A stretch of 64,000 nt of DNA, taken from Thermoproteota archaeon. GTDB taxonomy: Archaea; Thermoproteota; Thermoprotei_A; Sulfolobales; Acidilobaceae. The position numbers and the translations under genes are program-made. Every line of letters begins with the position of its first letter. Position 1 is the stretch's first letter. The notes beneath the pieces were generated by a model, which was not told the origin of the DNA, searched no databases, and saw only the letters and a list, made by a program, of their open reading frames with translations. Location: positions 2,753 through 66,752 of the forward strand of contig JAUQQR010000001.1 in assembly GCA_030549835.1 (NCBI GenBank), in the 5' to 3' direction. Of the stretch, positions 35,574 through 59,036 are shown piece after piece.

Positions 35574-35682
35574 AGATACACACCAGATATGCTAGAGTAG
35601 TATTAAAGCAAATATCTTAATATGAAAGATTATCTTCCGGAACCAGTACTCTGAATGTGTCAGCATATTATTAATTATCAGT

Positions 35683-35726
35683 AGGGTTGATAGTTGCTTT
35701 GGTGCGTTAGGTTTATAAGGGTTTTT
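35683..35726 (+). repeat. 5' fragment of the dispersed repeat (includes its first TATA-like box), pointing antisense into the nrdJ 3' end
   Basis: agggttgatagttgctttggtgcgttaggtttataagggttttt matches the first 44 nt or so of the copies at 62518 and 58993 (reverse complement) with about 3 differences. It ends 3 nt from the nrdJ stop codon. Confidence 0.5.
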
Positions 35727-35731
35727 AGAGG

Positions 35732-38722
35732 TTATCTTTCACATGTTTTACATGTTGAGTTCTCTGTTATCTCGAGTACTATTTCTTCTCCTTTAGTTTC
35801 TTCTTTAACCTCAAATATCTCCTTTAACTTTCTATCTCTCTCTGTTTCTACTGGTTTTAATGTTTTCTTTATGAGCGTCATTCTTGATGGTTGTGTTTTC
35901 TCTTTCTTCTTTCTTATTAATCTTCTTACTCCTGCTTTCTCTTTACCTCCGAATACTATTACTTGTGCTCCTTTACTTTCATCTCTATATACCGTGAATC
36001 CCTTTAATCCTCCTAGCCATGCTAGTATGTATACCATGTAGACGTCTTCGATTAGAGAGTCTTTATGTAGGTTTACTGTCTTACTTATAGCTTGATCTAT
36101 GTATAGCTGTGAGGCTATCTGATGTGATACATGGTACCATAGGTCGAAGTCCATTGCTGTGCTATATTTACGGGCTAGAGTTGCTAGGGCTTTTATGAAG
36201 CTCTCTGGTATGTTAAGTTCTCTTAGCTTAGCCTCTATCTCTGGTAGGGCTCTCCTTAGGCTCCCTTTATTCTCTCTTATCATATCATATACTAGCATTA
36301 TGGTATTATTATCTATATTATGCTTCCGGGCTTCTCTTAGTAGGTCTTTTCTAAATTCTCTATTAATCTCTAGGAATGACCCTATAGCTACCTGCCTCTT
36401 GAATACTAGAGCGAAGTAAGGCTCTATACCACTACTAGCTCCAGCTATTATGCTTATTGTGCCAGTAGGTGCCACAGTAGTTGTAACAGTATTCCTTGGA
36501 GCCTTAGCTCCAATAATTCTACCATAAGATCTTAGAGTCGTCCAAGCTCTAATAGGCTGGTATACTGCAAGGGCTAGGAGCATTTCAGGGCTTTTAGCAA
36601 CCTCTAATGGGCTAGCTTGTAGAGCTCTCCATAAATGCTCTCTAGTTATACCGAAAACATCTCTTAACACCTTCTCTAGAGTCTCTATAGGTATGAGTCT
36701 AAGAGCTCCATCACTCTCCACTCTTAATGCTGCTAATCCTCTAAACTTAGCCCTCACATCTTCCGGTATCCTTATATCCTCGTGGTACTTAACTTTAACC
36801 CATCCATCTTCAAATTTCATAACATAACCTGCCTTAACTAATGCTGGGATGTGAAGCTCTACGAGCTCTTCCGGATCTCCTCTCTCAATACACTCGAAGG
36901 CTCTCCAATCATAATGTTTACACTCAAATGCTGGAGCATGACCTAGCTCAGCTCCAAGCTCCCAACTCCTCTTCCAGCTAAATACTTCTAAAGCAGCTGA
37001 TACTATCATAGTAAATGCTACAGCCTCATCACTATCATATGGGTATCCTATCTCAGCTAGAGCATCAGCTAATCCCATAAATCCTAATCCAATCTTCCTA
37101 GTCATAAGATTAACTTTATAGTGCCTCGGGTCTGGGTGGTTGTTTAAGTCTATAGCTGCATCCATAGAGTCAATTATTAAGTGTATATCCTCATAGAATC
37201 TATCTACTCTAAACCTCTTATTCTCAATATACTTCGCTATGTTAAAGCTCCCGAGGTTACAGTTCTCGAATGGATATAATACCTGCTCTGAGCACGGGTT
37301 TGTAGCTACTAGTACTCCAAGCCATGGAGTTGGATTCCACTTATTATGGTTATCGAAGTATACTACGCCGGGGTCTCCTCCAGCCCATGCATTCTCAACA
37401 ATCTCATCCCATAATATTCTAGCATTAATCCTCCATATGTAAGTGTTCTTAGCTTCAATATTCGGATTTAAGCCTCTAGCTTTAGAGTAGTCCTCATAGT
37501 CTCTTAAAGCTTTAACTCTAGCATCTTCTAGAACATCCTCATATATGTTTAGGTATGGATTACTTAAGAGCCACCTATGCTTCTCAATAAGTTCTCCTAG
37601 TCTACCTAAGCCTGTAGCCTTACTAACACTATAGTGTATCTTATATAATCCATTACTAGCCGAGTATCTAGGATTAACCATCCACCAGTAATCATCATCT
37701 AATACTGCCTTCATGAATAAATCATTGATACCAACGCTTATGTTAAAGTTTGTTAAGTTAGCATCCTGTAATGGGGGCTTTTTAGCTTGTATAAATCCTG
37801 CATCTTCAACAGTCCAATATCCATTTCTTACCATATTCTCAATTATTGTTTTAATGTTTCTATCAACCTCGTAACCTTCGGATTCAATCTCCTCTATGAG
37901 CCTCTTAGTAGCCTCTAATATGTTGTTTATCTGGGGTGGCATCTTATTCCTTAGAGCAACATATGGGTCGAAGCCTGGCGTATATATGTCTGGATGCCAT
38001 ACATGCATTATGCCCATGTTAGCTCCTCTACGCTTACCTCCTTGTTTTACAAGCTCTGTTATTACATCATATAATTGCATAAAGCTTATAGGCCCACTAC
38101 TCCAGCCACTCGTACCCTTAACAATATCCCATCTAGGTCTAAGCTCGCTAAAGCTAAACCCTTGGCCTCCACCCCACTTAAATGTCATAGCTTGGACTAC
38201 GCCTGCATCCATTATAGCTCTCATATCATCATATACTGGAGTCACATAACATGCTGATAGTGTACCTCTAGCTCCATCAACATACATGTTGAAGAGAGTT
38301 GGACTATTAAACATGAAGTATCCATCTACCAGTAGCTTATATAGCTTCTCAGAGTCTACCCTACCCTTAAAGCCTAGAGCAACACGGGCCATGACCATAC
38401 TTGGAGTCTCTGTATATAAACCATTAGAACTTCTACTCATATACCTAGCCATTAAAACCCTTATAGCATTATAAGTAAACTTCATATCATCAGGGCAAGG
38501 CTCACTAATACGGCCCTCTAGGTACATCTTAATACATTCTGGGAAAGGAGCTAAGAGTCCTCCATTTAAAGCCTTCCCAGAGTAACTTCTAGAAACCTCA
38601 TCATATATTCTTTTAAGTAAGCTAATCTTAGCTTCAACTTCAGCCTCAGGTCTAACTGAAGACTCTTGTATTAGCTTTAATTCAAGCTCCTCACTCAAAC
38701 TATAACCCCCCATTACTCTCAC
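35732..38722 (-). CDS. nrdJ: Class II (adenosylcobalamin-dependent) ribonucleotide reductase
   Basis: 996 aa with NPCSEQ, TVAPTGT, SACYV and GGGQGFSFS motifs and a C-terminal CxxC tail (CKTCER). Confidence 0.9.
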   Translation of the reverse strand: MRVMGGYSLSEELELKLIQESSVRPEAEVEAKISLLKRIYDEVSRSYSGKALNGGLLAPFPECIKMYLEGRISEPCPDDMKFTYNAIRVLMARYMSRSSNGLYTETPSMVMARVALGFKGRVDSEKLYKLLVDGYFMFNSPTLFNMYVDGARGTLSACYVTPVYDDMRAIMDAGVVQAMTFKWGGGQGFSFSELRPRWDIVKGTSGWSSGPISFMQLYDVITELVKQGGKRRGANMGIMHVWHPDIYTPGFDPYVALRNKMPPQINNILEATKRLIEEIESEGYEVDRNIKTIIENMVRNGYWTVEDAGFIQAKKPPLQDANLTNFNISVGINDLFMKAVLDDDYWWMVNPRYSASNGLYKIHYSVSKATGLGRLGELIEKHRWLLSNPYLNIYEDVLEDARVKALRDYEDYSKARGLNPNIEAKNTYIWRINARILWDEIVENAWAGGDPGVVYFDNHNKWNPTPWLGVLVATNPCSEQVLYPFENCNLGSFNIAKYIENKRFRVDRFYEDIHLIIDSMDAAIDLNNHPDPRHYKVNLMTRKIGLGFMGLADALAEIGYPYDSDEAVAFTMIVSAALEVFSWKRSWELGAELGHAPAFECKHYDWRAFECIERGDPEELVELHIPALVKAGYVMKFEDGWVKVKYHEDIRIPEDVRAKFRGLAALRVESDGALRLIPIETLEKVLRDVFGITREHLWRALQASPLEVAKSPEMLLALAVYQPIRAWTTLRSYGRIIGAKAPRNTVTTTVAPTGTISIIAGASSGIEPYFALVFKRQVAIGSFLEINREFRKDLLREARKHNIDNNTIMLVYDMIRENKGSLRRALPEIEAKLRELNIPESFIKALATLARKYSTAMDFDLWYHVSHQIASQLYIDQAISKTVNLHKDSLIEDVYMVYILAWLGGLKGFTVYRDESKGAQVIVFGGKEKAGVRRLIRKKKEKTQPSRMTLIKKTLKPVETERDRKLKEIFEVKEETKGEEIVLEITENSTCKTCER

Positions 38723-42950: not shown

Positions 42951-44106
42951 GGGTAAGATTATAGCATACATACCAGACCCGAAAAGTCTAGTTATATCTG
43001 GGAGACTTGAACCAGCATGGCTTCCAGTATTTTATAATCCAGCTATGGAGTTTAATAGAGATTTAAGTGTAATAATCTTATCAGTGTATATTGATAAGTA
43101 TGCTCCACATAAGCCAGTAAATATTGTTGAGCCTCTAGCAGCTACTGGTATAAGGTGTCTTAGGTATGCTGTTGAAGTTGAAGGTGTTAATAAAGTATAC
43201 TGTGGCGATATAGATGTTAAAGCATATAGACTCATAGAGGCTAATATAGGGTTAAATAATCTATGGGATAAAATAATACATACCCTATCAGAAGCTAATG
43301 CCTACATGTATAAGCTTAAGGCTATAGGTGTTCCTATCTTAGTAGTAGATATTGATCCCTACGGTTCACCAGCTCCATTTATTAATGCATCATTAAACCT
43401 CATAGGCAATATGGGGCTACTCATGGTTACAGCTACTGATACTGCTGTATTAGAAGGCTCTAAGAGACTTAAAGCTTTAAGGAGATATCAGATTAATACT
43501 TATAAGATACCACAGTCTAGAGAAGTAGCTGTTAGAGCATTAATAGGGTATATAGCTAGGGTAGCAGCTGGACACGATAAATGGATTAAACCCCTACTAT
43601 CAGCATATATAGATTACTATATTAGGATTTACCTATTAATAGGTAGGAGTGCTCGTAAAGCTCAGGAAATGCTAGATAAAGATATAGGATACGCGTACTA
43701 CTGTAAAGACCTAGCATATGTTACAACAGACCCCAACATCAACGATAATATTAAATGCCATAACAAGATAATGTTAGGCCCGCTCTGGACTGGAGATATT
43801 TTTGATGGAAACCTCCTTGAAGAAGTTACTAGTAGACTAGAATTATATAGTTACATTGGGACTTATAAGAGGATAGTAAGGCTCCTAGAGGTGTTGAGGG
43901 GAGAAGCTAAAATTCAGAGATATATACATCAAAGGCTAGATGCGATAGCTTCTACTTTAAAAACCAAAACACCACCTAGAGATAAGGCTATAGAGGCTTT
44001 GATTAGTAGAGGATTTAAAGCTACCCCTACTCATTTCACTCCTACAGGGCTTAGAACAGATGCCCCGCCTAATGTATTAATAGATACGCTTTTCCTTACT
44101 AGCTAG
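42922..44106 (+). CDS. trm1: tRNA (guanine26-N2)-dimethyltransferase
   Basis: FYNPAMEFNRDLSV, LAATGIRCLRYAVE and DIDPYGSPAPFI motifs. TTG start overlapping the upstream gene by 29 nt. Confidence 0.85.
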   Translation: MLGRLAVVSEGKIIAYIPDPKSLVISGRLEPAWLPVFYNPAMEFNRDLSVIILSVYIDKYAPHKPVNIVEPLAATGIRCLRYAVEVEGVNKVYCGDIDVKAYRLIEANIGLNNLWDKIIHTLSEANAYMYKLKAIGVPILVVDIDPYGSPAPFINASLNLIGNMGLLMVTATDTAVLEGSKRLKALRRYQINTYKIPQSREVAVRALIGYIARVAAGHDKWIKPLLSAYIDYYIRIYLLIGRSARKAQEMLDKDIGYAYYCKDLAYVTTDPNINDNIKCHNKIMLGPLWTGDIFDGNLLEEVTSRLELYSYIGTYKRIVRLLEVLRGEAKIQRYIHQRLDAIASTLKTKTPPRDKAIEALISRGFKATPTHFTPTGLRTDAPPNVLIDTLFLTS

Positions 44107-44478
44107 CATCTTATCTATCCATGAATCTAATAATATACATGTCATAGGCTCATAGAATCCGCCAAGCTCGCATTGATCTATATAGGGGCATACAGTACAT
44201 GGTATTCCAAGTATACTCTCTATGTTAACATGTAGTACTGGATCTCTACTATTACTTTCAACTATATATAATTTAAATGTTTTACGACCATTAACTAGAA
44301 CCTTCTCCCTCCTTATGAGACCCTTCTTTAAAAGTCTCTGAACAAGACGTGATCCTTCTCTACTATCTAACTCTAGCTTTTTCCAAAGCTCACTTTGATA
44401 CATTACTCCACCATTACTTTTAATTAGACCCAAAGCTTTACTCTCATATGACTCTAGCTGTTTTACCAAGCTTAACAC
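44077..44478 (-). CDS. TFE-beta / RPC34-like winged-helix protein with a C-terminal 4-Cys (Fe-S) domain
   Basis: Winged helix (SELWKKLELDSREGSRLVQRLLKKGLI) followed by PCTVCPYIDQCELGGFYEPMTCILLDSWI. This matches my recollection of the RPC34/TFE-beta C-terminal cluster pattern. Confidence 0.55.
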   Translation of the reverse strand: MLSLVKQLESYESKALGLIKSNGGVMYQSELWKKLELDSREGSRLVQRLLKKGLIRREKVLVNGRKTFKLYIVESNSRDPVLHVNIESILGIPCTVCPYIDQCELGGFYEPMTCILLDSWIDKMLASKEKRIY

Positions 44479-44658
44479 CTTATAAATACCCTACCTTTAA
44501 TAAATGTATACGGCAGAGTTTAAATAAAGTATCAATTATAGCCTTAAATAATCATTGTTAAAACTCTGTGCTTTAATACATCTCTAATAAATTGCTAGTA
44601 ATCACTCTACTGCCGAATGCAACGTTTCCGGACTCTATAGCTATTTATATTAGCTGAT

Positions 44659-44936
44659 GCCTAATGTAGCTGTCTCGAGTTTTATAGTTATTCATACTAG
44701 TTTATATCATTCTCCTGCTATAGAGGAAATCTCGTAAACTACCCCTACTATCCCTAATGCTGAGGGCCACCTGGTGAGAGAGTAGAGAGCTTATAAATGA
44801 AAGCCCTCCCCAAAGGGTAGCATTACTCAAAATGTGGAGTGTCCAGAGGCCACCCTAAAAGCCTCCAGAGGGTGATGCAAATCCAAGGCCAACGCAGGAG
44901 AATAAGAGATGAGGCGATGATATCAAAGCTGAATCC
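44659..44936 (+). repeat. Left arm of an 892-bp inverted-repeat cassette (a member of the dispersed repeat family)
   Basis: 29-nt perfect terminal match to the reverse complement of 45522..45550. A 57-nt near-identical core (44755..44811) contains gagagCTTATAAAtg. Further shared blocks run up to the ORF stop codon. Confidence 0.8.
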
Positions 44937-45191
44937 TTAGCTCTTCTTCTTAGCTTCACTAGCATGCTTCTTGAATATGGTGCTCCACATTGTAGGCTCG
45001 ATATCCATAACCCATAGGGGGATCTTCTTGACTAGCTCGTAAGCCTCCTCCCAGCCCTCTAAGCTTAGGGATGCTGCTAGCTGTTCTAGTGTCATCTCAG
45101 TCCTCTTATACTTTCTTAGTATCTTCAGTGTTTCCTCGTTGATCTCAATATCTTTATCCCCAACTCTGATAACTAACCTATCTTCACTCAA
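44937..45191 (-). CDS. Hypothetical 84-aa protein enclosed by the inverted repeats
   Basis: TTG start with its own TATA-like ctatttataagg about 40-50 nt upstream. Charged, with a KKKS tail. No family recognised. Confidence 0.4.
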   Translation of the reverse strand: MSEDRLVIRVGDKDIEINEETLKILRKYKRTEMTLEQLAASLSLEGWEEAYELVKKIPLWVMDIEPTMWSTIFKKHASEAKKKS

Positions 45192-45261
45192 TACTCTATA
45201 ACACCCGGTATAATAGCATAGTAGCCTAGAAGCCTTATAAATAGGTGTTATGGGCTGCGTG

Positions 45262-45550
45262 GGATTCAGCTCTTATATAGATTTATATCGGGTGATTTCA
45301 TAGCCTCATCCCTTGTTCTCCTGCATCCCGCTCGGGTTTTCATCGGGCTTAAGGGCGTTCAGGTGACCCCTAGGCACACCACATTTTAAGTATTCATAGA
45401 GAGCCACCCTAGGGGAGGGCTTCTATTTATAAGCTCTCTACTCTCTCATCAGGTGGCCCTCAGCATTAAGAATAGGTAGATATGGATTATAATCTTCAAT
45501 GATATAAACTAATATAAACATCTATAAAACTCGAGACAGCTACATTAGGC
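45262..45550 (-). repeat. Right arm of the inverted-repeat cassette
   Basis: Its reverse complement aligns block by block with 44659..44936: the 29-nt terminus, the 57-nt core at 45412..45468, aaaatgtgg.., gcaggagaa.aag.gatgagg, and agctgaatcc. Confidence 0.8.
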
Positions 45551-45606
45551 TTGGCTGTAATTCAGCAAGTATTCTTATAGGGTTTAAGCTAGTAGATGCT
45601 TAATAG

Positions 45607-45837
45607 GTGTATGGTTTGCCTCTAGAGATTACTAGTTTAGATAGATTCATTGAGATAGCTAAGAGGGCTGAGGAGTGTAGGGTTAAGAGGGTGAGGAAGA
45701 GTAATATTGTTAAGATTAAAGCTAGGACTAAGAGATACCTATACACATTTAAGACTACAGAAGATAAACTCCAGGAGGTTCTAGGTAAAATCTCGTGTAA
45801 GCAGGTTATTGATGTTGATAAGCAGAGTAAGAGCTAG
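45607..45837 (+). CDS. rpl38e: Ribosomal protein L38e
   Basis: RYLYTFKTTEDKLQEVLGKIS aligns with eukaryotic RPL38 [21 protein letters not shown]. 76 aa and basic. Confidence 0.75.
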   Translation: MYGLPLEITSLDRFIEIAKRAEECRVKRVRKSNIVKIKARTKRYLYTFKTTEDKLQEVLGKISCKQVIDVDKQSKS

Positions 45838-47099
45838 AAGCTTATAGATTCTCCTACACCTGGATTTAGGACTTCAAATCCAAATTCCTCGGTTATCTTA
45901 GATGCTAGGATACTCTGAGCCTTCGGCACACCATGTACTAGTATTACTTTCTCGATATTCTTCATGTTTTTAAGGAGCTCAAGTATACCCCTCTGGTCTA
46001 TATGACTTGAGAAATCAAACCACTCTACTCTAGCCCTAATAGGTATCTCTTCCTGGAGTGCAAACCCCGTCTCTAGTATCTGTCTACCAGGAGTCCCCCT
46101 ACCCTGAAAGCTTACTAGGAATAATGCGTTTCTAGGGTTATCAGCTATTTTCCTTAAATAGTATAGGCTAGGTCCACCCTTAAGCATACCTGAGCTTGCA
46201 ATTATAACCCCAGATTCCTTATAAGCCATCTTCCTGTCATGCCACCCTCTAACTATGTTAAACTCTCTCATAGCCTTAACTAGTAAGCCATACATTCTAA
46301 TATAGCCTGGGTTTTGTAAGTAGAGCTCAGCAACATCCCTAATCATTCCATCAACCCATATAGGCCACCCTGGATCTCTCTCTGCTAGAATACATAGGAT
46401 CTCCTGCCCTCTACTCACACTAAAAGCTGGAATTAAGACTACTCCGTTACCCTCAACAACTTCCCTAATAGACTCATAGAATCTACTCTCAGTCTCCACT
46501 CTCGGGGGGTGATTTGTTGATCCATATGTAGACTCTATAATGACAATATTAGCCTCTAGGTCTCTAAGCTCAGCAGGCCTCATAAGCTTAGTCTCCATAA
46601 CGTTAACATCACTAGTATATAGTATAGTCTTATCTCTAGCCTCAATGAGAACACTAGCACTACCAGGAATATGGCCTGAGGGTAAGAGCTTAAACTTAAA
46701 ATCGCTAACCTCAACAATCTCTCCATAGTTTAAATGAGTACCTCTAGCAATCATCTCAGCTACAATACTCTCATCGAAGGGCAGGTTAGGCCCGCTAAGC
46801 TTAATCATATCATAGAGGAGTAGCCTTGAAACATCTAGGGTTAGGGATGTAGCATATAGGGGAGGCCCACTACTAATATAGAGCATAGGAGCCGCCCCCA
46901 CATGGTCTAGGTGGCTATGAGTTAAAATAAGCGCAGACAAATCCCTAGGCCTAACATGCTCTGGAAATATAGGATTATCTCTCTCATCAAAATTAACACC
47001 ATAATCTAAGAGTATAGAACCACCACTACTTTCAACTAGGATAGCAGCCCTACCAACCTCCCTCCCACTACCAAGTACCCTAATATTACCGCTACTCAT
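45834..47099 (-). CDS. Beta-CASP metallo-beta-lactamase RNase (aCPSF2-like)
   Basis: THSHLDHVG motif, and a 421-aa MBL plus beta-CASP layout without N-terminal KH domains. Confidence 0.8.
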   Translation of the reverse strand: MSSGNIRVLGSGREVGRAAILVESSGGSILLDYGVNFDERDNPIFPEHVRPRDLSALILTHSHLDHVGAAPMLYISSGPPLYATSLTLDVSRLLLYDMIKLSGPNLPFDESIVAEMIARGTHLNYGEIVEVSDFKFKLLPSGHIPGSASVLIEARDKTILYTSDVNVMETKLMRPAELRDLEANIVIIESTYGSTNHPPRVETESRFYESIREVVEGNGVVLIPAFSVSRGQEILCILAERDPGWPIWVDGMIRDVAELYLQNPGYIRMYGLLVKAMREFNIVRGWHDRKMAYKESGVIIASSGMLKGGPSLYYLRKIADNPRNALFLVSFQGRGTPGRQILETGFALQEEIPIRARVEWFDFSSHIDQRGILELLKNMKNIEKVILVHGVPKAQSILASKITEEFGFEVLNPGVGESISF

Positions 47100-47133
47100 G
47101 CTATTTCACAATTAATAAATGAAATTAAGCCTA

Positions 47134-47496
47134 TTAAGTACCACTAAGAGATTTAGAGAGGAGGATTAAGCCATACGCTACTATTAGTGTTAATAGATCT
47201 AAGTCTATATCTCTAAACTCTCTGATAACACCTAGTGTGTGTTTACACCTAGTACATACCCTATAAGTAACCTCTCCTATAATGTATAGGTTAAATAATT
47301 TTTTATCACTATTACCACATACTGGGCATACATATTGATCGAGTGTATAGGAGTATCCGCAGAGGCATCTAAGCTCAATAACATCTCTAGAGAATACCTC
47401 GCCCCTCTCCCTCTTAAATAAACCAAGTATCGGATATAAGCCACATATAGGACATCTGCCTGATAAGTGCCTTAAATCTAAGTGTTTATCCCTCAA
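47134..47496 (-). CDS. Zinc-ribbon protein with an FdhE-like Cys pattern and a C-terminal TM helix (tentative)
   Basis: The pattern CPICG ... RCLCGYSY ... CPVCG ... CTRCKH resembles the rubredoxin-like C-terminal half of FdhE. It is divergent from an fdhD-like gene. Confidence 0.3.
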   Translation of the reverse strand: MRDKHLDLRHLSGRCPICGLYPILGLFKRERGEVFSRDVIELRCLCGYSYTLDQYVCPVCGNSDKKLFNLYIIGEVTYRVCTRCKHTLGVIREFRDIDLDLLTLIVAYGLILLSKSLSGT

Positions 47497-47698
47497 ACTC
47501 TCAAGAGAACTCTCCTAGCTATAAAGCTTACTATTGATTGAGCTTCTTGAATGTCTATACTCCTAATAGCATCTAAGCGTATATCGCCAAAGTCTATGCC
47601 TCTACTCTTAGCTTGGGCTTTAATGGACTCAACTATATCCCTAAGAGTATTCTCCAATACTAAATATTATAGGTTGAGCTTCACTCCTCAACTCTACC

Positions 47699-48411
47699 TT
47701 GACTCTAGTAGACTCCACTATAGCTATTGATGAGAGACTAGACTTATACACTAATGGCAAATTATATACTATGCTTGTTTTAACCTCAGCTCATATTGAG
47801 GAAACAGTATTAGGTGTTCTTATAGGTGATGGTCTAGTATCATCATTATCTGATATTGAGAAAATTGATTTTGACTTAGAGAGTAGAATTACTCAGGTAT
47901 ATTTAAAGGTAAATATTGAACCTAAGAGGTTATTTGTAGAAGATTAGCAGCTAAAGGATTAATAGTGAATTCTAATCTCAAAGTCTCTTGGAAGACTATA
48001 GTCGATATTTTCCTAGATTTTAATAGGAGAACAATCTCTATTACTAAAGGTTTAGCTATGCACACATCAGGCATATATGATTTAGTAAATAGGAGAGCTA
48101 TCATAGCTCATGATGTTAGTAGGCACACTTCTATAGCTAAGCTAGTAGGCCTAGCAGTAACTCATAATATAGCTACTGAAAACTCAATAGTAATCACAAC
48201 TGGGAGAGCATCATCAGATATGGTTATTAGGAGTGCAAATATTAAAGTGCCAATAGTTATATCAACTAGAGGTCCACTCTATAGTGGTTTAACAGCAGCG
48301 TCAATGCTAAGAGTTACACTAATATCATATATTAGGAGAGGAGATGCTATTAGAGGGCTTAGAGTACTTACATACCCAGAGAGAATTATAGATTATTCAA
48401 AGAATTCCTAA
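47699..48411 (+). pseudogene. fdhD: FdhD-like sulfurtransferase split by a frame change (ORFs 47699..47947 and 47965..48411)
   Basis: The N-terminal part has DERLDLYTNG...LTSAHIEETVLGVLIGDGLV. The C-terminal part has AHDVSRHTSIAKLVG and TTGRASSDMVIRSANIKVPIVIS. The second frame is open from 47926 but has no usable upstream start. Confidence 0.6.
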
Positions 48412-48423
48412 TAGATTTTAAAG

Positions 48424-48432
48424 TTTTATATA
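48424..48432 (+). promoter_or_regulatory. TATA-box-like element upstream of tRNA-Phe
   Basis: ttttatata is centred about 30 nt upstream of the mature 5' end. Confidence 0.35.
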
Positions 48433-48457
48433 CTCCGGTTATAATATAATCTTAGGG

Positions 48458-48529
48458 GCCGCCGTAGCTCAGCGGGAGAGCGCCCGGCTGAAGACCGGGT
48501 GGTCGGGGGTTCGAATCCCCCCGGCGGCA
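48458..48529 (+). tRNA. tRNA-Phe (anticodon GAA)
   Basis: Acceptor GCCGCCG/CGGCGGC, anticodon loop CTGAAGA, and T-arm GGGGG-TTCGAAT-CCCCC. No intron and no encoded CCA. Confidence 0.93.
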
Positions 48530-48687
48530 TTTTGCTTCTTGGCGTGTTTGCTTCTATTTATCTGCGTTTGTATATGTTGGGTTTCCGTTGTTAGTTATCT
48601 CTTTTAGTCTTTTGTCTAGTTTTTGTTTCATTTTTTGCCTAAAAGCTTAAATAGGAGTAGCTTTAGTATAGTTTTAGGTGTTTTGTT

Positions 48688-49758
48688 TTGTGTGCTGCTA
48701 GACCTGAGAGTAGTGTTGGTATTCGTGGTTGGGGTGTTTATATTCCTAGGTTTAGGATTTCTATGGTTGAAATTGCTAGGGAGTGGGGTTGGAGTGATTA
48801 TCAGTGGAAGGCTCTTGGTATGGTTGAGAGGTCTGTTGCTGGGCCTGATGAAGACTCTACGACTATGGGTGTTGAGGCTTCTATTAATGCTCTGAAGAGA
48901 GCTAATATTAACCCGAGCGATATTGGTGCTGTGTTTTTTGGCTCAGAGTCTAAGCCTTATGCTGTCAAGCCTAGTGCTACTATTATAGCTGAAGTGTTGG
49001 GTATAACGCCTTTAACTATGGCTAGTGATTTGGAGTTTGCTTGTAGAGCTGCTAGTGAGGGGTTGAGAGCATCTATTGGTCTCATAGCCTCAGGTATGGT
49101 TAAGTATGCTCTAGTAGTTGGTAGTGATACTTCTCAGGCTAATCCAGGCGATGTCTTAGAGTTTACAGCTTCTAGCGGGGCGGCAACACTCATATTAGGA
49201 GGTAGTAGTGGGTCAGCAGCATATTTTGAGGGTAGTTTCTCATATATTACAGATACCCCAGACTTCTGGAGACGTGAGGGATCCCCCTACCCTAGGCATG
49301 GTGAGGGTTTTACGGGTGAGCCGGCGTACTTTAAGCATATAGTAGAGGCTGTAAGGGGGTTAATGGATTCTCTAGGCTTAAAGCCATCAGACTTCAACTA
49401 TGCTGTATTCCATCAGCCTAATGGTAGGTTCCCATTAAAGGTTGGGGAAATGCTTGGATTCAAAGCTGAGCAGATTAAGCTAGGCCTAGTTACTCCAATA
49501 ATAGGCAATACCTATAATGGCAGTGCTCTCATAGGCTTAGCTAGAGTACTAGACTATGCTAAGCCAGGAGAGAGGATACTAGTAGCACCCTTTGGTAGTG
49601 GTGCAGGGAGCGATGCTTATAGCTTAATAGTCACAGATAGTATTGATGAGAGTAGAGAGAGGGCTCCAACAGTAGACTATTATATTAAGAATAAAGTTAT
49701 GATAACCTACTCTCAGTACTCTAAGTTTAGGAGGCTACTGAGAGTTATTAGAGAATAG
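48688..49758 (+). CDS. Archaeal hydroxymethylglutaryl-CoA synthase
   Basis: VGIRGWGVYIPRFRI start region, catalytic Cys context EFACRAASEG, and FHQPNG. About 350 aa. First gene of the thiolase/HMGCS/DUF35 trio. Confidence 0.85.
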   Translation: MCAARPESSVGIRGWGVYIPRFRISMVEIAREWGWSDYQWKALGMVERSVAGPDEDSTTMGVEASINALKRANINPSDIGAVFFGSESKPYAVKPSATIIAEVLGITPLTMASDLEFACRAASEGLRASIGLIASGMVKYALVVGSDTSQANPGDVLEFTASSGAATLILGGSSGSAAYFEGSFSYITDTPDFWRREGSPYPRHGEGFTGEPAYFKHIVEAVRGLMDSLGLKPSDFNYAVFHQPNGRFPLKVGEMLGFKAEQIKLGLVTPIIGNTYNGSALIGLARVLDYAKPGERILVAPFGSGAGSDAYSLIVTDSIDESRERAPTVDYYIKNKVMITYSQYSKFRRLLRVIRE

Positions 49759-49768
49759 GTGGCGTAGC

Positions 49769-50899
49769 ATGGCTTACATAACAGGGGCATCCATGATTAA
49801 TATTGATAGGCACTATGATAAGAGTATTAGGAGGCTAGCATCTGATGCTGTATTTAAGCTAGACAGTAGTAGTGTAGAGAACGTAGACTATGTCATTGTA
49901 GCATCTAGTATATCCTACCTTCAGGAGCCACAGCTAGACTTAGCCTCATATATAGCGTCAGCGTTAGGATTAAGGAATGCTAGGGCTTTTAACGTTGAAG
50001 CCGGGGAGGTTTCTGGTGCTACGGCAGTACTAATGGCTAAATCTCTGGTTGATAGCAGGTTAGCATCTAAAGTCTTAGTTGTTGGTGTTGATAAACTATC
50101 GAATTATCCGTCAGCAGTAACATATAAGCATATATCCCTGCTTAATGACTCTGAGAGTGAATCTCTCTATAGTATAGGTTTAGGTGGTATAGCTGGCATA
50201 CTTATGAGGCTATACATGGAGACTTATAAGGTTGACAGGTTAACATTAGCATACTGGCCTGCACTTATGCACTCTAATGCTAAGCTTAACCCATACGCTA
50301 TGTTACGCTTCACAATAACACCTGAGAAGGTCTTAGACGCTATGCCTATAGCAGATCCTATAACTCTACTAGATACATTCCCTATAGGTGATGGTGCTGC
50401 AGCTCTAGTAGTAGAGTCTAAACCTAGAGATGCTCTAGCAGAGATTGTAGCTGTAGAGTCTGCAGTAGGGTACCCTAGTATAACTTTAAGCCCAGATCCT
50501 CTAAGAATAGATTCTCTAGAGTTAGCCTACAGTAGGTTAACTGAGAAGCTCGACTTAAAGAGGATTGATGTTATTGAGCTCCACGACTCATACACTATAT
50601 CAGCTATACTCCAGCTAGAGTCATTAAGACTAGCAGAGAGGGGTAAAGCTGCTGAAGCTGTAGCAAATGGATACTTTACAGTAAATGGAGACGGTCCAGT
50701 TGTTAATCCTAGTGGTGGCTTAAAAGCTAGAGGTCACCCTATAGGAGCTACTAGTGTATACCAGGTTGCTGAGGTAGCATCACAGATAGCTGGTATATTT
50801 CCTGGATTGAAAGTTCCGGATGCTAAGAGTGGACTTGTAGTATCAGTTAATGGTTTTGGCTCAAACTCCTACGTAGTATACCTTAGAGGTGTAGAGTAG
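49769..50899 (+). CDS. Acetyl-CoA acetyltransferase (archaeal thiolase)
   Basis: NPSGGLKARGHPIGATSVYQ and the C-terminal GFG..S motifs. 376 aa. Confidence 0.85.
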   Translation: MAYITGASMINIDRHYDKSIRRLASDAVFKLDSSSVENVDYVIVASSISYLQEPQLDLASYIASALGLRNARAFNVEAGEVSGATAVLMAKSLVDSRLASKVLVVGVDKLSNYPSAVTYKHISLLNDSESESLYSIGLGGIAGILMRLYMETYKVDRLTLAYWPALMHSNAKLNPYAMLRFTITPEKVLDAMPIADPITLLDTFPIGDGAAALVVESKPRDALAEIVAVESAVGYPSITLSPDPLRIDSLELAYSRLTEKLDLKRIDVIELHDSYTISAILQLESLRLAERGKAAEAVANGYFTVNGDGPVVNPSGGLKARGHPIGATSVYQVAEVASQIAGIFPGLKVPDAKSGLVVSVNGFGSNSYVVYLRGVE

Positions 50900-51298
50900 A
50901 TGCTGTCTAAGAGCCCGCCAGTAGTTTGGAGGAGTAGAATATATAGGTATAGGCTTATAGGGTGTAAGTGTAAAAACTGTGGTAGAGTACATTACCCACC
51001 AGCTAGTGCCTGCCCATACTGTAGCTCTAGAGACTTAGAAGAGGTAGAGCTCCCAAGAGTAGGGAAAGTCTTAAGCTATAGTATAGTATATGCTGTAGAT
51101 AGTGATGCTAGAGAGAGAAGCCCAGTTATACTGGGCCTTATAGATCTCGGAGTTACAAGAATTATAGCTGAAATAACAGACGCTAACCCCGAAGATATTA
51201 AAATAGGATCACAGCTAGAAGCAGTGTTTAGGAGGATTGGAGAAGATGGAGAGACAGGAGTAATCATATATGGTTTAAAGTTTAGACCAGTAATCTAA
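50900..51298 (+). CDS. DUF35 OB-fold / zinc-ribbon scaffold protein of the thiolase-HMGCS complex
   Basis: CKNCGRVHYPPASACPYCSS zinc ribbon followed by an OB-fold segment. It starts 1 nt after the thiolase stop. Confidence 0.8.
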   Translation: MLSKSPPVVWRSRIYRYRLIGCKCKNCGRVHYPPASACPYCSSRDLEEVELPRVGKVLSYSIVYAVDSDARERSPVILGLIDLGVTRIIAEITDANPEDIKIGSQLEAVFRRIGEDGETGVIIYGLKFRPVI

Positions 51299-51310
51299 GG
51301 TGAACTTAAA

Positions 51311-52564
51311 GTGGAGAAGACTCTAAATATAGAAGAGATTATATCTAAGATTGATAAGGGAGAAGTCTCTCTAAGCAAGCTTGAAGAGCATCTAGGAAAT
51401 GCTAACCTAGCAGTCCTAGCTAGGAGAGTATACTTAGAGAAGAAGACTGGGGTTAGTATGCCTAGCATAGCTAGTACTATAATAGACTTTGAAGAGGTCT
51501 ATGGCCGTAATATTGAGAATGCTATAGGAGCAGTACAGATCCCTGTAGGTATTGTAGGCCCCCTGAGAGTTGATGGAGAATATGCTAGTGGGGAATTCTA
51601 TGTACCCCTAGCAACTACTGAAGGAGCACTTATAGCAAGTGTTAATAGAGGTGTTAAAGCTATAACACTTAGTGGTGGTGCTAAAACTAGGGTTTTGAAG
51701 GATGGTATGACTAGAGCTCCTCTAATATGGACTCCTAGTGTTGAGGAGGCTTTAAGATTCATAGAGTGGACTAAAAGTAATATAGAAGCATTTAAAGCTA
51801 AGGTAAGCGAGGCTACAAGGCATGGTAGCCTAATTGATGTGCAGCCATTTATAGTAGGTAACCTAGTATGGCTAAGACTAGTCTATAAGACGGGGGATGC
51901 CATGGGGATGAATATGGCTACATTAGCTAGTGACAAGATATGCTCATATATAGAGTCATCATATGATGGCCCTGCTAGATGTATATCTTTAAGCGGGAAT
52001 ATGTGTACTGATAAGAAGCCAGCTATCATAAATAGACTCTTAGGTAGAGGTAAATATGTCATAGCTGAGGCAGTAGTAAGAGAGAATATAGTAGAGAATA
52101 TTCTCAAAGCTAAACCTGAGCTCATACACTATATCAACATTACTAAGAACTTATTAGGGAGTGCAGTAGCTGGTAGTAATAGTTTTAATGCTCACTATGC
52201 CAACATTATAGCGGCTATATTTATAGCAACAGGGCAAGATGCTGCTCAAGTGGTAGAGAGTAGTATGGGGTTCACATGGACAGAGCTTAGAGATAGAGAT
52301 CTATACATATCAGTAACTCTACCAAGCCTTGAAGTAGGCACTATAGGTGGAGGCACTAGGCTCCCAGCACAGAGGGAAGCATTAAGACTACTAGGTGTAG
52401 AGGGGGGAGGGAATCCGCCAGGAGTTAATGCATTAAAGTTTGCAGAGATAATAGCAGCTACAGTATTAGCTGGAGAATTAAACCTACTAGCAGCTCTAGC
52501 CTCAGGACACCTAGCTAGAGCTCATGAGAAGTTTGGTAGAGGGGTAGTGAGGGTTAAGCGTTGA
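51311..52564 (+). CDS. hmgA: HMG-CoA reductase (class I type)
   Basis: ATTEGALIASVNRG, GDAMGMNM and GTIGGGT motifs. Confidence 0.9.
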   Translation: MEKTLNIEEIISKIDKGEVSLSKLEEHLGNANLAVLARRVYLEKKTGVSMPSIASTIIDFEEVYGRNIENAIGAVQIPVGIVGPLRVDGEYASGEFYVPLATTEGALIASVNRGVKAITLSGGAKTRVLKDGMTRAPLIWTPSVEEALRFIEWTKSNIEAFKAKVSEATRHGSLIDVQPFIVGNLVWLRLVYKTGDAMGMNMATLASDKICSYIESSYDGPARCISLSGNMCTDKKPAIINRLLGRGKYVIAEAVVRENIVENILKAKPELIHYINITKNLLGSAVAGSNSFNAHYANIIAAIFIATGQDAAQVVESSMGFTWTELRDRDLYISVTLPSLEVGTIGGGTRLPAQREALRLLGVEGGGNPPGVNALKFAEIIAATVLAGELNLLAALASGHLARAHEKFGRGVVRVKR

Positions 52565-52607
52565 ATATTAAGGTTTCGCTTAAAATAAGACACATTTAGG
52601 AGTATAG

Positions 52608-52931
52608 ATGAAAGCTAATGCTAAGCTTGAGTATTATAGTGCATATCCACGTATAAGAGAAGAGATATTAGTAGGGCCCCCTAAGCTTACTAGATTTGAG
52701 AAAGCTAGGATTATAGCTATTAGAGCACTACAGTTGAGTAGAGGAGCTCCTCCTCTAGTATCTCCTGAAGCTGTGAGATCTACAGATCCAGTTATTATAG
52801 CTAAGTATGAGGTTGAAAACGGTATTCTACCAGTATCTATCTTGAGATACACGAGCTCTGGGTTAAGGCAGAGTATTCCTTTATCATTACTAGTTAAGCT
52901 TACTCGTGAAGTGGCTGGTAGAATTGAGTGA
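52608..52931 (+). CDS. rpoK: DNA-directed RNA polymerase subunit K (Rpo6)
   Basis: LTRFEKARIIAIRALQLSRGAPPLV and the EVENGILPVSILRY motifs. Confidence 0.8.
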   Translation: MKANAKLEYYSAYPRIREEILVGPPKLTRFEKARIIAIRALQLSRGAPPLVSPEAVRSTDPVIIAKYEVENGILPVSILRYTSSGLRQSIPLSLLVKLTREVAGRIE

Positions 52932-53997
52932 GCATACTCTAAATATATGTAGATCTATAGTCTCTGAGTATTTCGAGATTCTAGGCGAGTACAGCTATGG
53001 GTCTAGGCTAGACTTAATACTAGGACTCCCAAAGAAGTGGGACAACTTAGAGGATACTCTCACAAACCTATACCCTAAGCTAACAGCTAGTAACTGTAAC
53101 CCGCTACTTTCACGAGATGAGAGAGGTTTAGTATTATATGTATTCGAGGGGAGAGAGTCTCATAATTTAGCTATTAATATTGGATTAGCTATTACTACTC
53201 TATTCACAGTATTCTTATCAGGTCTAGCCTTATCGGGGGCCAGAGAGTCTCTTGTAGGAGCTCAAGGACTAGCTTGGAGCCCTATAGCATACGTTATAGG
53301 ACTACTAATACCTCTAATTATACATGAGCTCGGTCACTGGAGTTTTATGAGACTATATAAAACTCCGTCAAGTTTACCATACCTAATCCCAGCTCCACCA
53401 TTACAGTTAGGATTCTTAGGTACTTTTGGGGCAGTTATAAATCTCAGGTGGCTCCCACCTTCTGGTAACTCTCTATCTTTAATGGCTTTAGCCGGTCCTC
53501 TCGCGGGATATATTGTGGCTATTCCTCTAGCAGTTTATGGTGTTTTAAGTTCAGTATCTGTAACTACTCTCCCTGAAGGTACTTTAACTTTAAATATTGT
53601 TCCTCTATCTTTCATTATTATTCATAGCTTAGCATGGCGTGGTGAAGGCTATATGCTCTTAAGTCCGCTAGCGTTTGCTTCCTACGTCGTATTCTTTGTT
53701 ACATTCCTAAACCTTATACCTATAGCTATGCTTGATGGGGGGCATATTGTGAGAGGTGTTGCCGGCTCTATAGCTCACAGTATTATTAGTAGGCTATTTA
53801 TTCTAGTACTCGTAGCTATGGCTGTTTTTAATCCTAACTTCATATTCTTTGCACTCATAGCCATACTATTATACTTTATATCCGGGGGTAAGCATCCGGG
53901 TCCAGCTATGAAGGTAGAGAGTAGTCCAAATGTGAGCTTAATAACCTCAATACTATATGGGGTTCTCCTGGTCTTAACAATTCCAATACCGTTATAA
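52906..53997 (+). CDS. M50-family site-2 protease (membrane metalloprotease)
   Basis: HELGHW (HExxH) in a TM helix and NLIPIAMLDGGH (NxxPxxxLDG). Confidence 0.8.
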   Translation: MKWLVELSEHTLNICRSIVSEYFEILGEYSYGSRLDLILGLPKKWDNLEDTLTNLYPKLTASNCNPLLSRDERGLVLYVFEGRESHNLAINIGLAITTLFTVFLSGLALSGARESLVGAQGLAWSPIAYVIGLLIPLIIHELGHWSFMRLYKTPSSLPYLIPAPPLQLGFLGTFGAVINLRWLPPSGNSLSLMALAGPLAGYIVAIPLAVYGVLSSVSVTTLPEGTLTLNIVPLSFIIIHSLAWRGEGYMLLSPLAFASYVVFFVTFLNLIPIAMLDGGHIVRGVAGSIAHSIISRLFILVLVAMAVFNPNFIFFALIAILLYFISGGKHPGPAMKVESSPNVSLITSILYGVLLVLTIPIPL

Positions 53998-54017
53998 GCT
54001 TATAGTGGGTTAATATA

Positions 54018-56087: not shown

Positions 56088-56371
56088 GAATACAATAGCA
56101 TTAAACTACACTTCTCCTAGATAGCTCCTCGATCTTAATTAATGAGACACTCATTTAGTCACTCCTAGATGGTACCTAGAATCTAGTTAACCATACTGTG
56201 CTATATAGTTTTAGAGGCTATGAGAATACTCGGGTAGGCTGAGCTCTACTTAGCTAGAATTGATAGCGACCTGTAAGTTTGCTAGGTAGTGGTGTAAGCT
56301 TCTAGCTATGAGAGTATACTTAGGAGCTAATAGTTTGTTTAGCTCTTTGAGCTTTAGAGGCTTTTATAGTT

Positions 56372-56653
56372 TTAAGCTTTATACTTTGAGACTAGCATAC
56401 ACTCGCCGTTAATATTAGCTCTGAGCTTACAGACATAGAATCTACATTTAAAACCTATACATTGGCTCCCTAATAATAGGCATGTTGCTATTTTGACCTG
56501 GAATCCTCTAATAGTACTCTTTGATATGACTAGTGAATCTTTTAGGCATGTATAGTAGGGGCATGCTGGGTTACACTTTAATCCCAGGGGGGAGGGTTTG
56601 GGGTTTAAGTTTTCAATATTGAGGACTCCATAGTTCTCTATATTTATTTTCAA
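56372..56653 (-). CDS. Small Cys-rich hypothetical protein (9 Cys in 93 aa)
   Basis: CNPACPYYTC ... CLLLGSQCIGFKCRFYVC ... C. Last gene of the 58723->56372 operon. No family recognised. Confidence 0.3.
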   Translation of the reverse strand: MKINIENYGVLNIENLNPKPSPLGLKCNPACPYYTCLKDSLVISKSTIRGFQVKIATCLLLGSQCIGFKCRFYVCKLRANINGECMLVSKYKA

Positions 56654-56673
56654 TATTCACACCTTACTTAGTA

Positions 56674-58723: not shown

Positions 58724-58728
58724 ATATT

Positions 58729-58993: not shown

Positions 58994-59036
58994 AAATATA
59001 AGGTTTAAATTTAAATAGTATAAGCGAGGTTTAACT

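Follow-up and report, generated by a model that had tools for sequence, protein, structure and literature searches.

Inverted copies of a lineage-specific non-coding repeat flank the ribosomal protein gene aS33 in an Acidilobaceae species

What are the two inverted arms that bracket an 84-aa open reading frame (ORF) between a TFE-beta-like gene and rpl38e in this Acidilobaceae genome, and does the gene between them belong to them? In a sequence-only reading of the 64,000-nucleotide stretch analysed here (the window), the locus was proposed to be a foldback or MITE-like insertion that had captured a small gene, a sense/antisense regulatory module, or a long-hairpin RNA locus. The ORF is a native ribosomal protein gene, and the arms are probably, although with considerable room for doubt, copies of a lineage-specific, non-coding dispersed repeat of ~280 bp, that is, miniature non-autonomous insertion elements lying as an inverted pair and plausibly IS607-derived. 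The features of the locus are given in Table 1.

Table 1. Features of the aS33 locus, in window coordinates unless otherwise given
Feature	Position	Strand	Description
TFE-beta-like gene	44077-44478		MarR/Rpc34-like winged-helix protein with four cysteines
Left arm	44659-44936	+ (family orientation)	278 bp, non-coding; homology to right arm
Left-arm terminal AT-rich block	44659-44711		53 nt, 92% identical to partner 45498-45550 (repeat search)
Left-arm core block	44748-44816		69 nt, 90% identical to partner 45407-45475 (repeat search and alignment)
Left-arm GC-rich inner module	44818-44936	+	Partner 45262-45400, minus strand
aS33 gene	44937-45191	-	Small-subunit ribosomal protein, 84 aa; PDB profile match
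Native aS33 promoter and 5' UTR (predicted)	45192-45261	-	Sequence inference
Right arm	45262-45550	- (family orientation)	289 bp, non-coding; homology to left arm
rpl38e (Ribosomal_L38e)	45607-45837
Inverted segment, aS33 to UbiA	44937-63887		~19 kb, in the opposite orientation to that in related genera
IS607-family tnpA	L088 9173-9820 (about 64068-64715 in extended coordinates)		Outside the window, starting 68 nt past its right end

The repeat pair and the gene between its arms

The arms are inverted copies of one another, with 74.3% identity over 276 nt (blastn of the arms against the window, E 3e-42; aligned span 44659-44925 against 45550-45293). In the arm-to-arm alignment the homology runs in both arms from GCCTAATG... 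to ...AGCTGAATCC, and the repeat search finds further ordered blocks of homology besides the terminal and core blocks. The core blocks contain CTTATAAAT, with GAGAGCTTATAAAT in the left-arm core. The inner half of the arm has a GC content of 48–62%, against 22–35% in other intergenic DNA, and the inner module terminates in what may be a small hairpin, GAUGAGGC/GCUGAAUC, that has tandem G.A. Were an arm to be excised as a circle, the junction would read ...GCTGAATCC joined to GCCTAATG....

The inverted repeat, its near-identical core and the end of the left arm immediately before the ORF, the stop codon of which starts at 44937, are all as described in the sequence-only reading, and the self-BLASTN that it had suggested as a check does return the arm-to-arm match. 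The 29-nt termini that it reported as perfect are so in the window and in one other strain; in most strains 28 of the 29 positions match, site 45529 in the right-arm terminal block being polymorphic. Other contigs of the species, 13 of them from NCBI MAGs and one from JGI, have the identical layout, so the structure is not an assembly artefact. Indeed, 15/15 assemblies of this species carry the two arms at unchanged positions, with no presence/absence polymorphism, and give no sign of recent mobility.

There is no Pfam or NCBIfam match to the 84-aa ORF. A profile of 20 homologues matches PDB 9fhl chain d, 'aS33' (E 7e-29, over residues 4–73), this reference being the chain in the S. solfataricus 30S structure (9fhl_d). 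The formerly unannotated ORF can thus be named as the recently discovered ribosomal protein aS33, which has been described as restricted to Thermoprotei (PMC11698992). Within Thermoprotei, 59 loci related to the ORF were found, with homologues in Acidilobales, Desulfurococcales, Fervidicoccales, and Sulfolobales.

Together, rpl38e and aS33 make up a conserved divergent gene pair, the two adjoining in about 14 related loci, and aS33 has kept both its orientation and the ancestral synteny beta-CASP-L38e-aS33. It is 70–80% identical to its relatives, compared with 68–79% for L38e and 70–74% for beta-CASP. Conserved synteny with beta-CASP and L38e, and a divergence equal to theirs, mark aS33 as native and vertically inherited, and the suggestion that a small gene had been captured is mistaken. 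Being native and in its ancestral place, the gene did not arrive with the arms as a package; nor is it cargo moved to a new site between two copies, as in a composite transposon or mobilization unit.

The proximal TATA-like box proposed for the ORF is present, as CCTATTTATAAGG at 45231-45245 on the minus strand upstream of aS33, and GGGTG lies 12–16 nt upstream of the TTG start. The predicted promoter is inside the arm-bracketed segment, where TTTATAAG reads in the direction of the gene. The left arm is placed between the aS33 stop codon and the upstream region of the TFE-beta-like gene; this winged-helix gene and Ribosomal_L38e are the neighbours that had been named before.

Empty sites in related genomes and the inversion junction

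The spacer between rpl38e and aS33 is 415–424 bp in this species against about 80–135 bp in its relatives, and in silico deletion of the right arm leaves a spacer of 126–135 bp. Judged by these lengths, the conserved divergent spacer has received the right arm as a clean insertion of 289 bp. Arm-like sequence is absent from 409 kb of 72 loci from other species (nhmmer), an inverted repeat flanking aS33 was found in none of 59 genome loci, nor in the further contigs examined, and in relatives the arm was not found as native DNA upstream of TFE-beta. The sequence-only reading had tied its mobile-element interpretation to an empty site in related genomes, and every related genome examined shows one. 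These comparisons support the view that the arms are lineage-specific insertions.

The gene orders aS33-(GNAT)-Amidohydro_2 and UbiA-TFEbeta-Trm1 are seen in relatives, and aS33-arm-TFEbeta-Trm1 and Amidohydro_2-tnpA-UbiA in this species; aS33 never precedes TFE-beta/Trm1 in relatives. Both changes are accounted for by a single inversion, which has the left arm at one junction and an IS607-family tnpA at the other. This gene matches NCBIfam NF033518 (IS607 family transposase) with 225 bits against a cut-off of 110 and encodes HTH_17/MerR and Resolvase domains. It is 18.5 kb from the cassette, within 18 kb of which no recombinase gene was found. The earlier statement that there is no transposase is correct for the window, but not for the DNA just past its right end.

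Similarity between the arms and the surroundings of tnpA extends to both sides of the gene. Arm positions 45–129 resemble the upstream region (p 0.002) and a 16-nt exact match from the core block, TGATGAGAGAGTAGAG, recurs there, while positions 152–223 resemble the downstream region (p 0.02), collinear and in the same orientation as the upstream match. The chained-alignment test of the arm against the tnpA flanks gives p 0.04–0.06, and nhmmer reports no similarity between them at E 0.1. From these alignments, a link of the arms to IS607 would be a weak one. To our knowledge, there is no study of the mobilisation of transposase-less serine-transposase derivatives.

The arms had been assigned to a repeat family. 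No further arm copy is present in the window, but one diverged partial copy lies ~27 kb away, outside it, upstream of the rRNA operon (L088, about 803–975). This third copy shares the inner module (SW 49 against a null maximum of 40 in 3000; nhmmer E 0.011), which gives two full copies and one diverged partial copy in about 74 kb searched. Across all JGI metagenomes the core 22-nt pattern matches this locus alone, and the terminal 19-mer has no match in a genome collection that does not include this species. A second, unrelated repeat family (fam2, 260–345 bp) fills spacers that are 18–115 bp in relatives, and its core module is also present upstream of tnpA. A viral or plasmid origin of the arms is rejected, there being no blastn match in phage or plasmid collections and no match in exact-pattern scans of viral contigs.

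The arms are short (a classical MITE being under about 500 bp) and non-coding, as in a classical MITE, with stops in all six frames. Coding potential is rejected on these stops and because the 21/25-codon micro-ORF shared by the arms, in which 2 changes are synonymous and 2 are not, is interrupted in the third copy; a search of 5.8 billion proteins with a six-frame pseudo-protein gave no match. No terminal inverted repeats are present within the left arm (head 45 nt against reverse-complemented tail 45 nt, p 0.78), and the same comparison in the right arm gives p 0.03 for a match that is internal and AT-rich, not terminal. The repeat search likewise finds no intra-arm inverted repeat. Around the left arm there is TTAGCT at 44650-44655 and 44937-44942 (chance about 0.01), and near both ends of the right arm GGCTG (chance about 0.03); both are short and are offset by 0–4 nt from the homology boundaries. 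With no terminal inverted repeats within the arm, and flanking repeats this short and ambiguous, a classical MITE or foldback element is not supported.

These same flanking motifs could be template-switch microhomologies, which would suit a local inverted duplication in which a lineage-specific intergenic arm was copied across aS33 by template switching or fold-back repair, followed by gene conversion and with no transposition at all. The shared start and end positions of the arms are what would be expected of a duplicated segment, terminal inverted repeats are lacking, and only two full-length copies are known, next to one another. This origin is nevertheless unlikely, as the third copy and the core fragment near tnpA make this a dispersed sequence, the filling of short spacers by fam2 points to a general insertion process, and the source of the first arm would be left unexplained.

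Gene conversion between the arms and possible functions

Strain differences are concentrated in the arms, where there are 31 variable sites in 567 bp compared with 5 in the surrounding 733 bp (p 1e-7). At approximately 18 of these sites, in roughly 8 tracts and including a 7-nt indel, the variant is the sequence of the other arm. Most of the differences are thus arm-to-arm gene conversion, and the locus offers a clean natural case, from a hyperthermophilic archaeon, of short-tract conversion where inverted repeats lie close together. Other point changes amount to 1.9% in the arms against 1.0% in other intergenic DNA; they are no rarer in the arms, and the 'conserved' blocks are also affected. 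The polymorphism of the arms gives no sign of purifying selection on the blocks.

That recombination between the arms clearly happens, that they are inverted repeats with near-perfect 29–53-nt termini, and that a serine recombinase gene is found at a distance of 18.5 kb are features to be expected of an invertible switch, in which a site-specific recombinase or homologous recombination would flip the aS33 segment and change its expression. Such a switch is extremely unlikely here. Only one orientation is seen in 15/15 assemblies, the aS33 promoter is inside the segment and flipping would therefore not switch the gene, the recombinase is an IS607-type transposase that is not adjacent, and the exchanges that are seen are non-reciprocal conversions.

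The arms had been thought to carry inward-facing promoter cores, giving an antisense transcript from the left and a sense transcript from the right, which was an inference. Proximal promoters that share the 8-mer read TTTATAAG in the direction of their gene, five of them in the window and the sixth that of tnpA (L088), and it is by this rule of the genome's own promoters that the arm cores point outward. From their sequence the putative promoter-like cores are more likely to act outward than inward. Read outward, the left-arm terminal block has the TATA-like CTATAAAAC.

This orientation bears on the possibility that the arm is a cis-regulatory DNA module, its GC-rich inner module and TATA-like core coordinating the expression of the rRNA operon, aS33, rpl38e, and the TFE-beta-like gene. 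Outward, the core and terminal block resemble promoters of this genome (CTATTTATAAG, for instance, and AAACATCTAT, which is also seen in the S8e promoter), and the genes that lie in that direction are rpl38e and the TFE-beta-like gene. In two places, before aS33 at the right arm and before the 16S-23S operon at the third copy, the inner module ends ~20 nt upstream of a TATA in the same orientation. However, all of the related genera do without the arms, the same genes there having compact promoters of their own, strains vary in the blocks with no purifying selection, the left arm read inward faces the 3' end of aS33, where there is no gene to control, and three copies are insufficient for a regulon. 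A module of this kind is quite unlikely.

The arms could alternatively act as RNA, either as an imperfect arm duplex of ~217 bp in a read-through aS33 transcript, where it would be a panhandle or processing stem affecting stability, processing or translation, or as a small non-coding RNA of ~110–200 nt from each arm, although this is distinctly improbable. The predicted arm-arm hairpin has -424 kcal/mol on the sense strand against -388 on the antisense strand, transcription from the ancestral aS33/rpl38e TATA would begin close to where the right arm has its outer end, and a GC-rich half in the AT-rich genome of a hyperthermophile is typical of structured RNA. The small tandem-G.A hairpin is common to all three copies and includes one compensatory pair. 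Folding into a long hairpin in silico is, however, a trivial consequence of the repeat, single arms fold no better than shuffled sequences (z -0.9 to +0.2), and the two- and three-sequence consensus folds are weak. T-runs soon after the aS33 stop codon may also end transcription before the arm is complete.

Substitutions between the arms favour G.U-compatible changes by 23:9 (p 0.02), which might have been taken as selection for an RNA duplex. The unrelated fam2 inverted pair, which is 3.5 kb apart and cannot form one RNA, has the same bias (9:2), so it reflects mutation and selection on a duplex is rejected. A bulge-helix-bulge (BHB) processing stem of the rRNA type is likewise rejected, with no opposed 3-nt bulge pair among the 20 internal loops of the predicted duplex. 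Rfam at gathering thresholds finds three tRNAs elsewhere in the window and nothing in the arms, and at E 10 the locus has only chance-level matches, with 17.5 bits and E 2.6 for the best C/D entry. The arms do contain GAUGA/CUGA box-like motifs; taking either 10–12 nt complementary to rRNA or an Rfam match as the mark of a C/D guide, the C/D box sRNA is rejected, only chance-level 9-mers matching the genome's own 16S and 23S rRNA. A replication origin with ORB-like repeats is also rejected, since there is no orc1/cdc6 nearby and ORB sequences match over a heptamer at most.

The arms abut the aS33 transcription unit exactly, and two of the three copies are just upstream of promoters of ribosome components. 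Their placement appears non-random, and the exact abutment, the ribosomal promoters and the GC-rich half would also fit a functional element. With low probability, the arms may be a device of ribosome synthesis, either a panhandle that controls the aS33 mRNA or an inner module that couples rRNA and aS33/L38e expression. As a panhandle, they would control how the mRNA for a ribosomal protein sited at the mRNA exit channel is processed, how stable it is or how it is translated; in the coupling form, the inner module would be a species-specific DNA site or a small RNA with the tandem G.A hairpin. If true, the lineage would have invented its own means of regulating a ribosomal protein gene, which would be the more interesting outcome.

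A probable insertion-element origin and its known counterparts

If the arms are instead insertion elements, as is preferred here, each would lack terminal inverted repeats and would plausibly derive from an IS607-family (serine-transposase) element, with no transposase of its own. One copy would have inserted into the divergent rpl38e-aS33 promoter spacer and the other directly 3' of the aS33 stop codon, at the junction of the ~19-kb inversion, the opposite end of which carries the IS607-family transposase gene. The gene for aS33, with its own promoter, would merely have come to sit between them. Because they are inverted and only 325 bp apart the arms recombine, patches of one being copied onto the other time after time by gene conversion, which produces the mosaic of near-identical blocks and unalignable stretches. 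No dedicated cellular function would be needed. As possible side effects, the arms could bring promoter-like sequence close to aS33, rpl38e, and the TFE-beta-like gene, form a 5'/3' panhandle in any aS33 transcript that reads through, and serve as a substrate for more inversions. On this explanation, a single Acidilobaceae species, as yet uncultured, would have had its housekeeping promoter spacers colonised by miniature insertion elements, which would have marked an inversion breakpoint and would now be evolving in concert, all of which is ordinary genome natural history.

Long inverted repeats that bracket a gene for translation and may form a long helix recall the processing stems of archaeal 16S and 23S rRNA. 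The arms differ in having no bulge-helix-bulge motif and in being absent from all relatives, and co-transcription is only putative here.

Composite units include the integron mobilization units, with two 288-bp elements around blaGES-5, and MITE-flanked integrons. The likeness is in two inverted, non-coding copies of ~280 bp that bracket a single short gene, but in those the whole unit is mobile and the cargo foreign, whereas aS33 is native and in its ancestral place.

The MITEs of Sulfolobus of the SM1-SM4 type have terminal inverted repeats and target-site duplications, and IS605-type elements are marked by subterminal hairpins together with a 5' target motif that is fixed. The arms are similar to Sulfolobus MITEs and IS200/IS605-derived palindrome-associated elements in being small, non-autonomous, intergenic and crenarchaeal, but terminal repeats, subterminal hairpins and a fixed target motif are not evident in them. 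The IS200/IS605 and IS607 families have neither terminal inverted repeats nor target duplications, and the arms also are without terminal inverted repeats.

A ~260-nt repeat that is like the DNA preceding one-ORF IS607-family transposases occurs in 14 copies in Staphylothermus marinus (Anderson et al. 2009, PMC2678158). Both hosts belong to the same broad group of crenarchaea, and the repeats in both are non-coding, of about 260–280 bp, resemble DNA upstream of a one-ORF IS607-family tnpA, and include truncated copies. The 14 repeats of S. marinus are reported to be flanked by inverted repeats (PMC2678158), whereas only 3 copies are known of the arms, which show no terminal inverted repeats, and the similarity of the arms to the tnpA flanks is weak, S. 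marinus being compared by description only. If the IS607 link is true, the arms would join the repeats of Staphylothermus marinus as a second example of serine-transposase elements with derivatives that have no transposase.

The inverted repeat and the gene it encloses

Two inverted repeats, referred to here as the arms, bracket an ORF of 84 aa and match one another at 74.3% identity over 276 nt (blastn, E 3e-42), with no comparably close match elsewhere in the 64 kb window by blastn. The inverted arms described in the sequence-only reading are borne out, as are the left arm's end at the ORF, where its final base immediately precedes the stop codon, and the proximal TATA-like box, which sits between the ORF start and the right arm, the latter stopping 70 nt upstream of that start. 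The terminus, described as a perfect 29-nt repeat, is inverted, but matches at 28 of 29 positions in most strains. The similarity is a mosaic of blocks with barely alignable stretches between, the indels being 15, 1, 7, 2 and 20 nt. This layout is shared by 13 MAG contigs and by a JGI metagenome contig from the species, the 1.3 kb region being 98–99.9% identical among them, so the cassette is not an assembly artefact; that this inverted pair serves as an invertible switch is hardly credible.

Coordinates of the features (L088 is a record extending past the right end of the window, with its own coordinates)
Feature	Position	Strand	Remarks
Left arm	44659-44936		inverted copy of right arm, ~280 bp
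Right arm	45262-45550		inverted copy of left arm, ~280 bp (289 bp)
AT-rich terminal block of arms			53 nt, 92% identity between arms
Core block of arms			69 nt, contains GAGAGCTTATAAAT, 90% identity between arms
Further shared block			around AAAATGTGG
Further shared block			GCAGGAGAA.AAG.GATGAGGC.ATGA.ATCA
Last shared block			AGCTGAATCC
84-aa ORF	44937-45191	minus	
TATA-like box	45231-45245		
Third arm copy	L088 about 803-975		about 27 kb right of cassette
16S rRNA	L088 1411-2909		
23S rRNA	L088 3114-6205		
tnpA	L088 9173-9820	minus (window orientation)	68-715 nt past right end of window
fam2 long copy	58729-59037	+	inverted pair with next, 3.3-3.5 kb apart
fam2 long copy	62361-62705	-	
fam2 other copy	35658-35733	-	
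fam2 other copy	16059-16240	+	
fam2 other copies	L088 8958-9015, 9108-9144		
Inversion junction	44479-44936		
Inversion junction	just beyond 63887		L088 8855-10000

There is no Pfam or NCBIfam match for the ORF, and a profile of 20 homologues matches PDB 9fhl chain d, 'aS33', over nearly its full length (E 7e-29). [quoted passage not shown] The distribution in the homologue lists agrees with this range. The order beta-CASP nuclease, rpl38e (minus), aS33 (plus) is present in every locus where aS33 is at least 70% identical, and identity to relatives is similar for aS33 (70–80%), L38e (68–79%), and beta-CASP (70–74%), so the aS33 gene is native and vertically inherited. It is not the captured small gene that had been suggested.

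Between fdhD and beta-CASP (about 47134-47760; 7429-8058 in the strain records L001-L008), the gene calls are strain-dependent: a single ORF of 209 aa, one of 132 aa, or a pair of 54 and 120 aa. Short fdhD-like calls vary too, being either a pair of 148 and 58 aa or one of 82 aa. The variation points to decaying genes or to frameshift polymorphism.

Insertion sites and the 19 kb inversion

The arms are lineage-specific additions, restricted to one species. There is no inverted repeat around aS33 in 59 genome loci, nor in the additional contigs fetched, and nhmmer arm profiles found no arm-like sequence in other species in 409 kb from 72 loci. Relatives carry the empty site that it had been proposed to look for, their rpl38e–aS33 spacer being about 80–135 bp, against 415–424 bp here. 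Without the right arm the spacer would be 126–135 bp, with a TATA box at either side, one for rpl38e and one for aS33, so that the right arm is a clean insertion between two divergent promoters.

A synteny break coincides with the left arm. The gene order in relatives is aS33-[acetyltransferase]-Amidohydro_2 and, elsewhere, p244-UbiA-TFEbeta-Trm1; here it is aS33-arm-TFEbeta-Trm1 and, 19 kb off, Amidohydro_2-tnpA-UbiA-p244, and the acetyltransferase gene 3' of aS33 is missing. A single inversion of the UbiA...aS33 segment (44937-63887, ~19 kb) would interconvert the two orders.

On balance, the arms would seem to be miniature transposase-less elements, plausibly IS607-derived, that inserted into the promoter spacer and right after the aS33 stop codon, one of them in association with the 19 kb inversion; the closeness and inverted arrangement of the copies would then have led to frequent gene conversion.

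A second repeat family, fam2 (about 260–345 bp), is unrelated to the arms in sequence. The long copies occupy spacers that are 18–115 bp in related genera and enclose housekeeping genes (signal peptidase, flavoprotein, S8e, SRP19, 5-FTHF cyclo-ligase, MTHFR-like), and the core module is found twice upstream of tnpA, once within its promoter; in filling short spacers and lying near tnpA, fam2 behaves like the arms. It carries two TATA-like boxes, and copy 58729 has an additional 74-nt GC-rich insert (58796-58870).

Gene conversion, promoters and possible RNA structure

The arms evolve by gene conversion. Across 15 assemblies, the 567 bp of the arms contain 31 variable sites and the 733 bp around them contain 5 (p 1e-7). 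About 18 of the arm sites, spread over roughly eight tracts, have a variant identical to the other arm's state. In the JGI strain, 44812-44823 of the left arm is replaced by the right arm's sequence, with a 7-nt insertion (TGGCTCT), and arm identity is 78.5%. Conversions in both directions are seen at 44799/44800, 45423/45424, 45449, 45388, and 45471. The leftover point changes, about 11 (1.9%, versus 1.0% in neighbouring intergenic DNA), also strike the 'conserved' blocks. Recent conversion therefore explains the near-identical blocks better than purifying selection; there is no sign of constraint in the variation across these assemblies, and the arms may well have no function. Strains L001 and L007 share a linked double change in the right-arm core (45455 and 45458), GGCC to AGCT in a palindrome, of which the other arm is not the source; several nucleotides may have mutated together, an unseen copy may have been the donor in a conversion, or a restriction site may have been lost.

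A third copy, shorter, diverged, and mainly restricted to the GC-rich inner module, lies ahead of the single 16S-23S operon, 60–160 nt upstream of its AT-rich promoter region (nhmmer E 0.011 in 74 kb; Smith-Waterman score 49, where 3000 random windows reached at most 40). The arms belong to a small dispersed family; that they arose by local inverted duplication, close and inverted as they are, is unlikely. The third copy is oriented to the rRNA operon as the right arm is to aS33, as might be expected of a cis-regulatory module common to ribosome-related genes. Such a module is distinctly unlikely; rpl38e, the TFE-beta-like gene, and aS33 each keep their own predicted proximal promoter. The octamer CTTATAAA is quasi-palindromic, and six proximal promoters bearing it (5 in the window and that of tnpA in L088) read TTTATAAG in the gene direction. 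Read in this way, both the arm cores and another TATA-like site, which lies in the terminal block, would point outward, toward rpl38e and the TFE-beta-like gene, opposite to the inward direction previously proposed. A consensus TATA box, GGTATTTATAAGG (minus strand, 44479-44491), abuts the first possible TFE-beta-like starts (GTG 44478, TTG 44469), and this gene has either a start further downstream (TTG 44433) or a different, more distal promoter box.

In their inner halves the arms are 48–62% GC, versus 22–35% in other intergenic DNA, the window being 38% G+C. GC-rich stretches in an AT-rich hyperthermophile genome are a classic hint of structured RNA, and the entire cassette is predicted to fold into an imperfect duplex of ~217 bp (-424 kcal/mol in aS33-sense RNA versus -388 in antisense). 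An RNA-level element is nevertheless improbable. There are no ORFs and no Rfam match in the arms, the folding of a single arm is no better than that of shuffled sequence, whichever strand is taken (z -0.9 to +0.2), and all that the consensus fold of the three copies yields is a small hairpin, GAUGAGGC/GCUGAAUC, which has a tandem G.A and a single compensatory pair. C/D-like boxes are present, without guide complementarity to the organism's own rRNAs, and there is no bulge-helix-bulge motif in the duplex.

Arm-to-arm transitions favour G.U in the aS33-sense strand (23:9, p 0.02), and the fam2 pair, across convergent operons, has the same bias (9:2), which rules out RNA selection as its cause and indicates regional mutation asymmetry. 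In both pairs, positions with A or C in the left copy have G or T in the right, which suggests that a C-to-T mutation bias acts specifically on the minus strand throughout the region.

Possible relationship to IS607-type elements

The tnpA product is a serine recombinase of 215 aa with HTH_17/MerR and Resolvase domains, scoring 225 bits against the NCBIfam 'IS607 family transposase' (cut-off 110). The gene stands alone between Amidohydro_2 and UbiA, with no adjacent tnpB, and its downstream flank reaches within about 20 nt of the UbiA start codon. Arm positions 45–129 are similar to its upstream DNA (p 0.002), including an exact 16-mer, TGATGAGAGAGTAGAG, and positions 152–223 to its downstream DNA (p 0.02). 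The two stretches of similarity keep their order and orientation, the pattern expected of a derivative that has lost the transposase gene. The chained-alignment test gave p 0.04–0.06, and nhmmer did not report the similarity; the arms are possibly related to an IS607-type element, the link being weak.

IS607-family elements are not known to carry terminal inverted repeats or target duplications, and the lack of terminal inverted repeats within the arms is consistent with this. Short direct repeats border the left arm (TTAGCT, chance about 0.01) and the right arm (GGCTG, chance about 0.03). RGCT is present at all four arm junctions and could be a preferred target, a recombination core, or a chance recurrence.

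A published precedent for arms related to an IS607-type element comes from Staphylothermus marinus, where, besides five IS607-family elements, there are 14 copies of a ~260-nt repeat similar to the DNA upstream of the one-ORF transposases (PMC2678158). The arm sequence family is new; the kind of element is already known.
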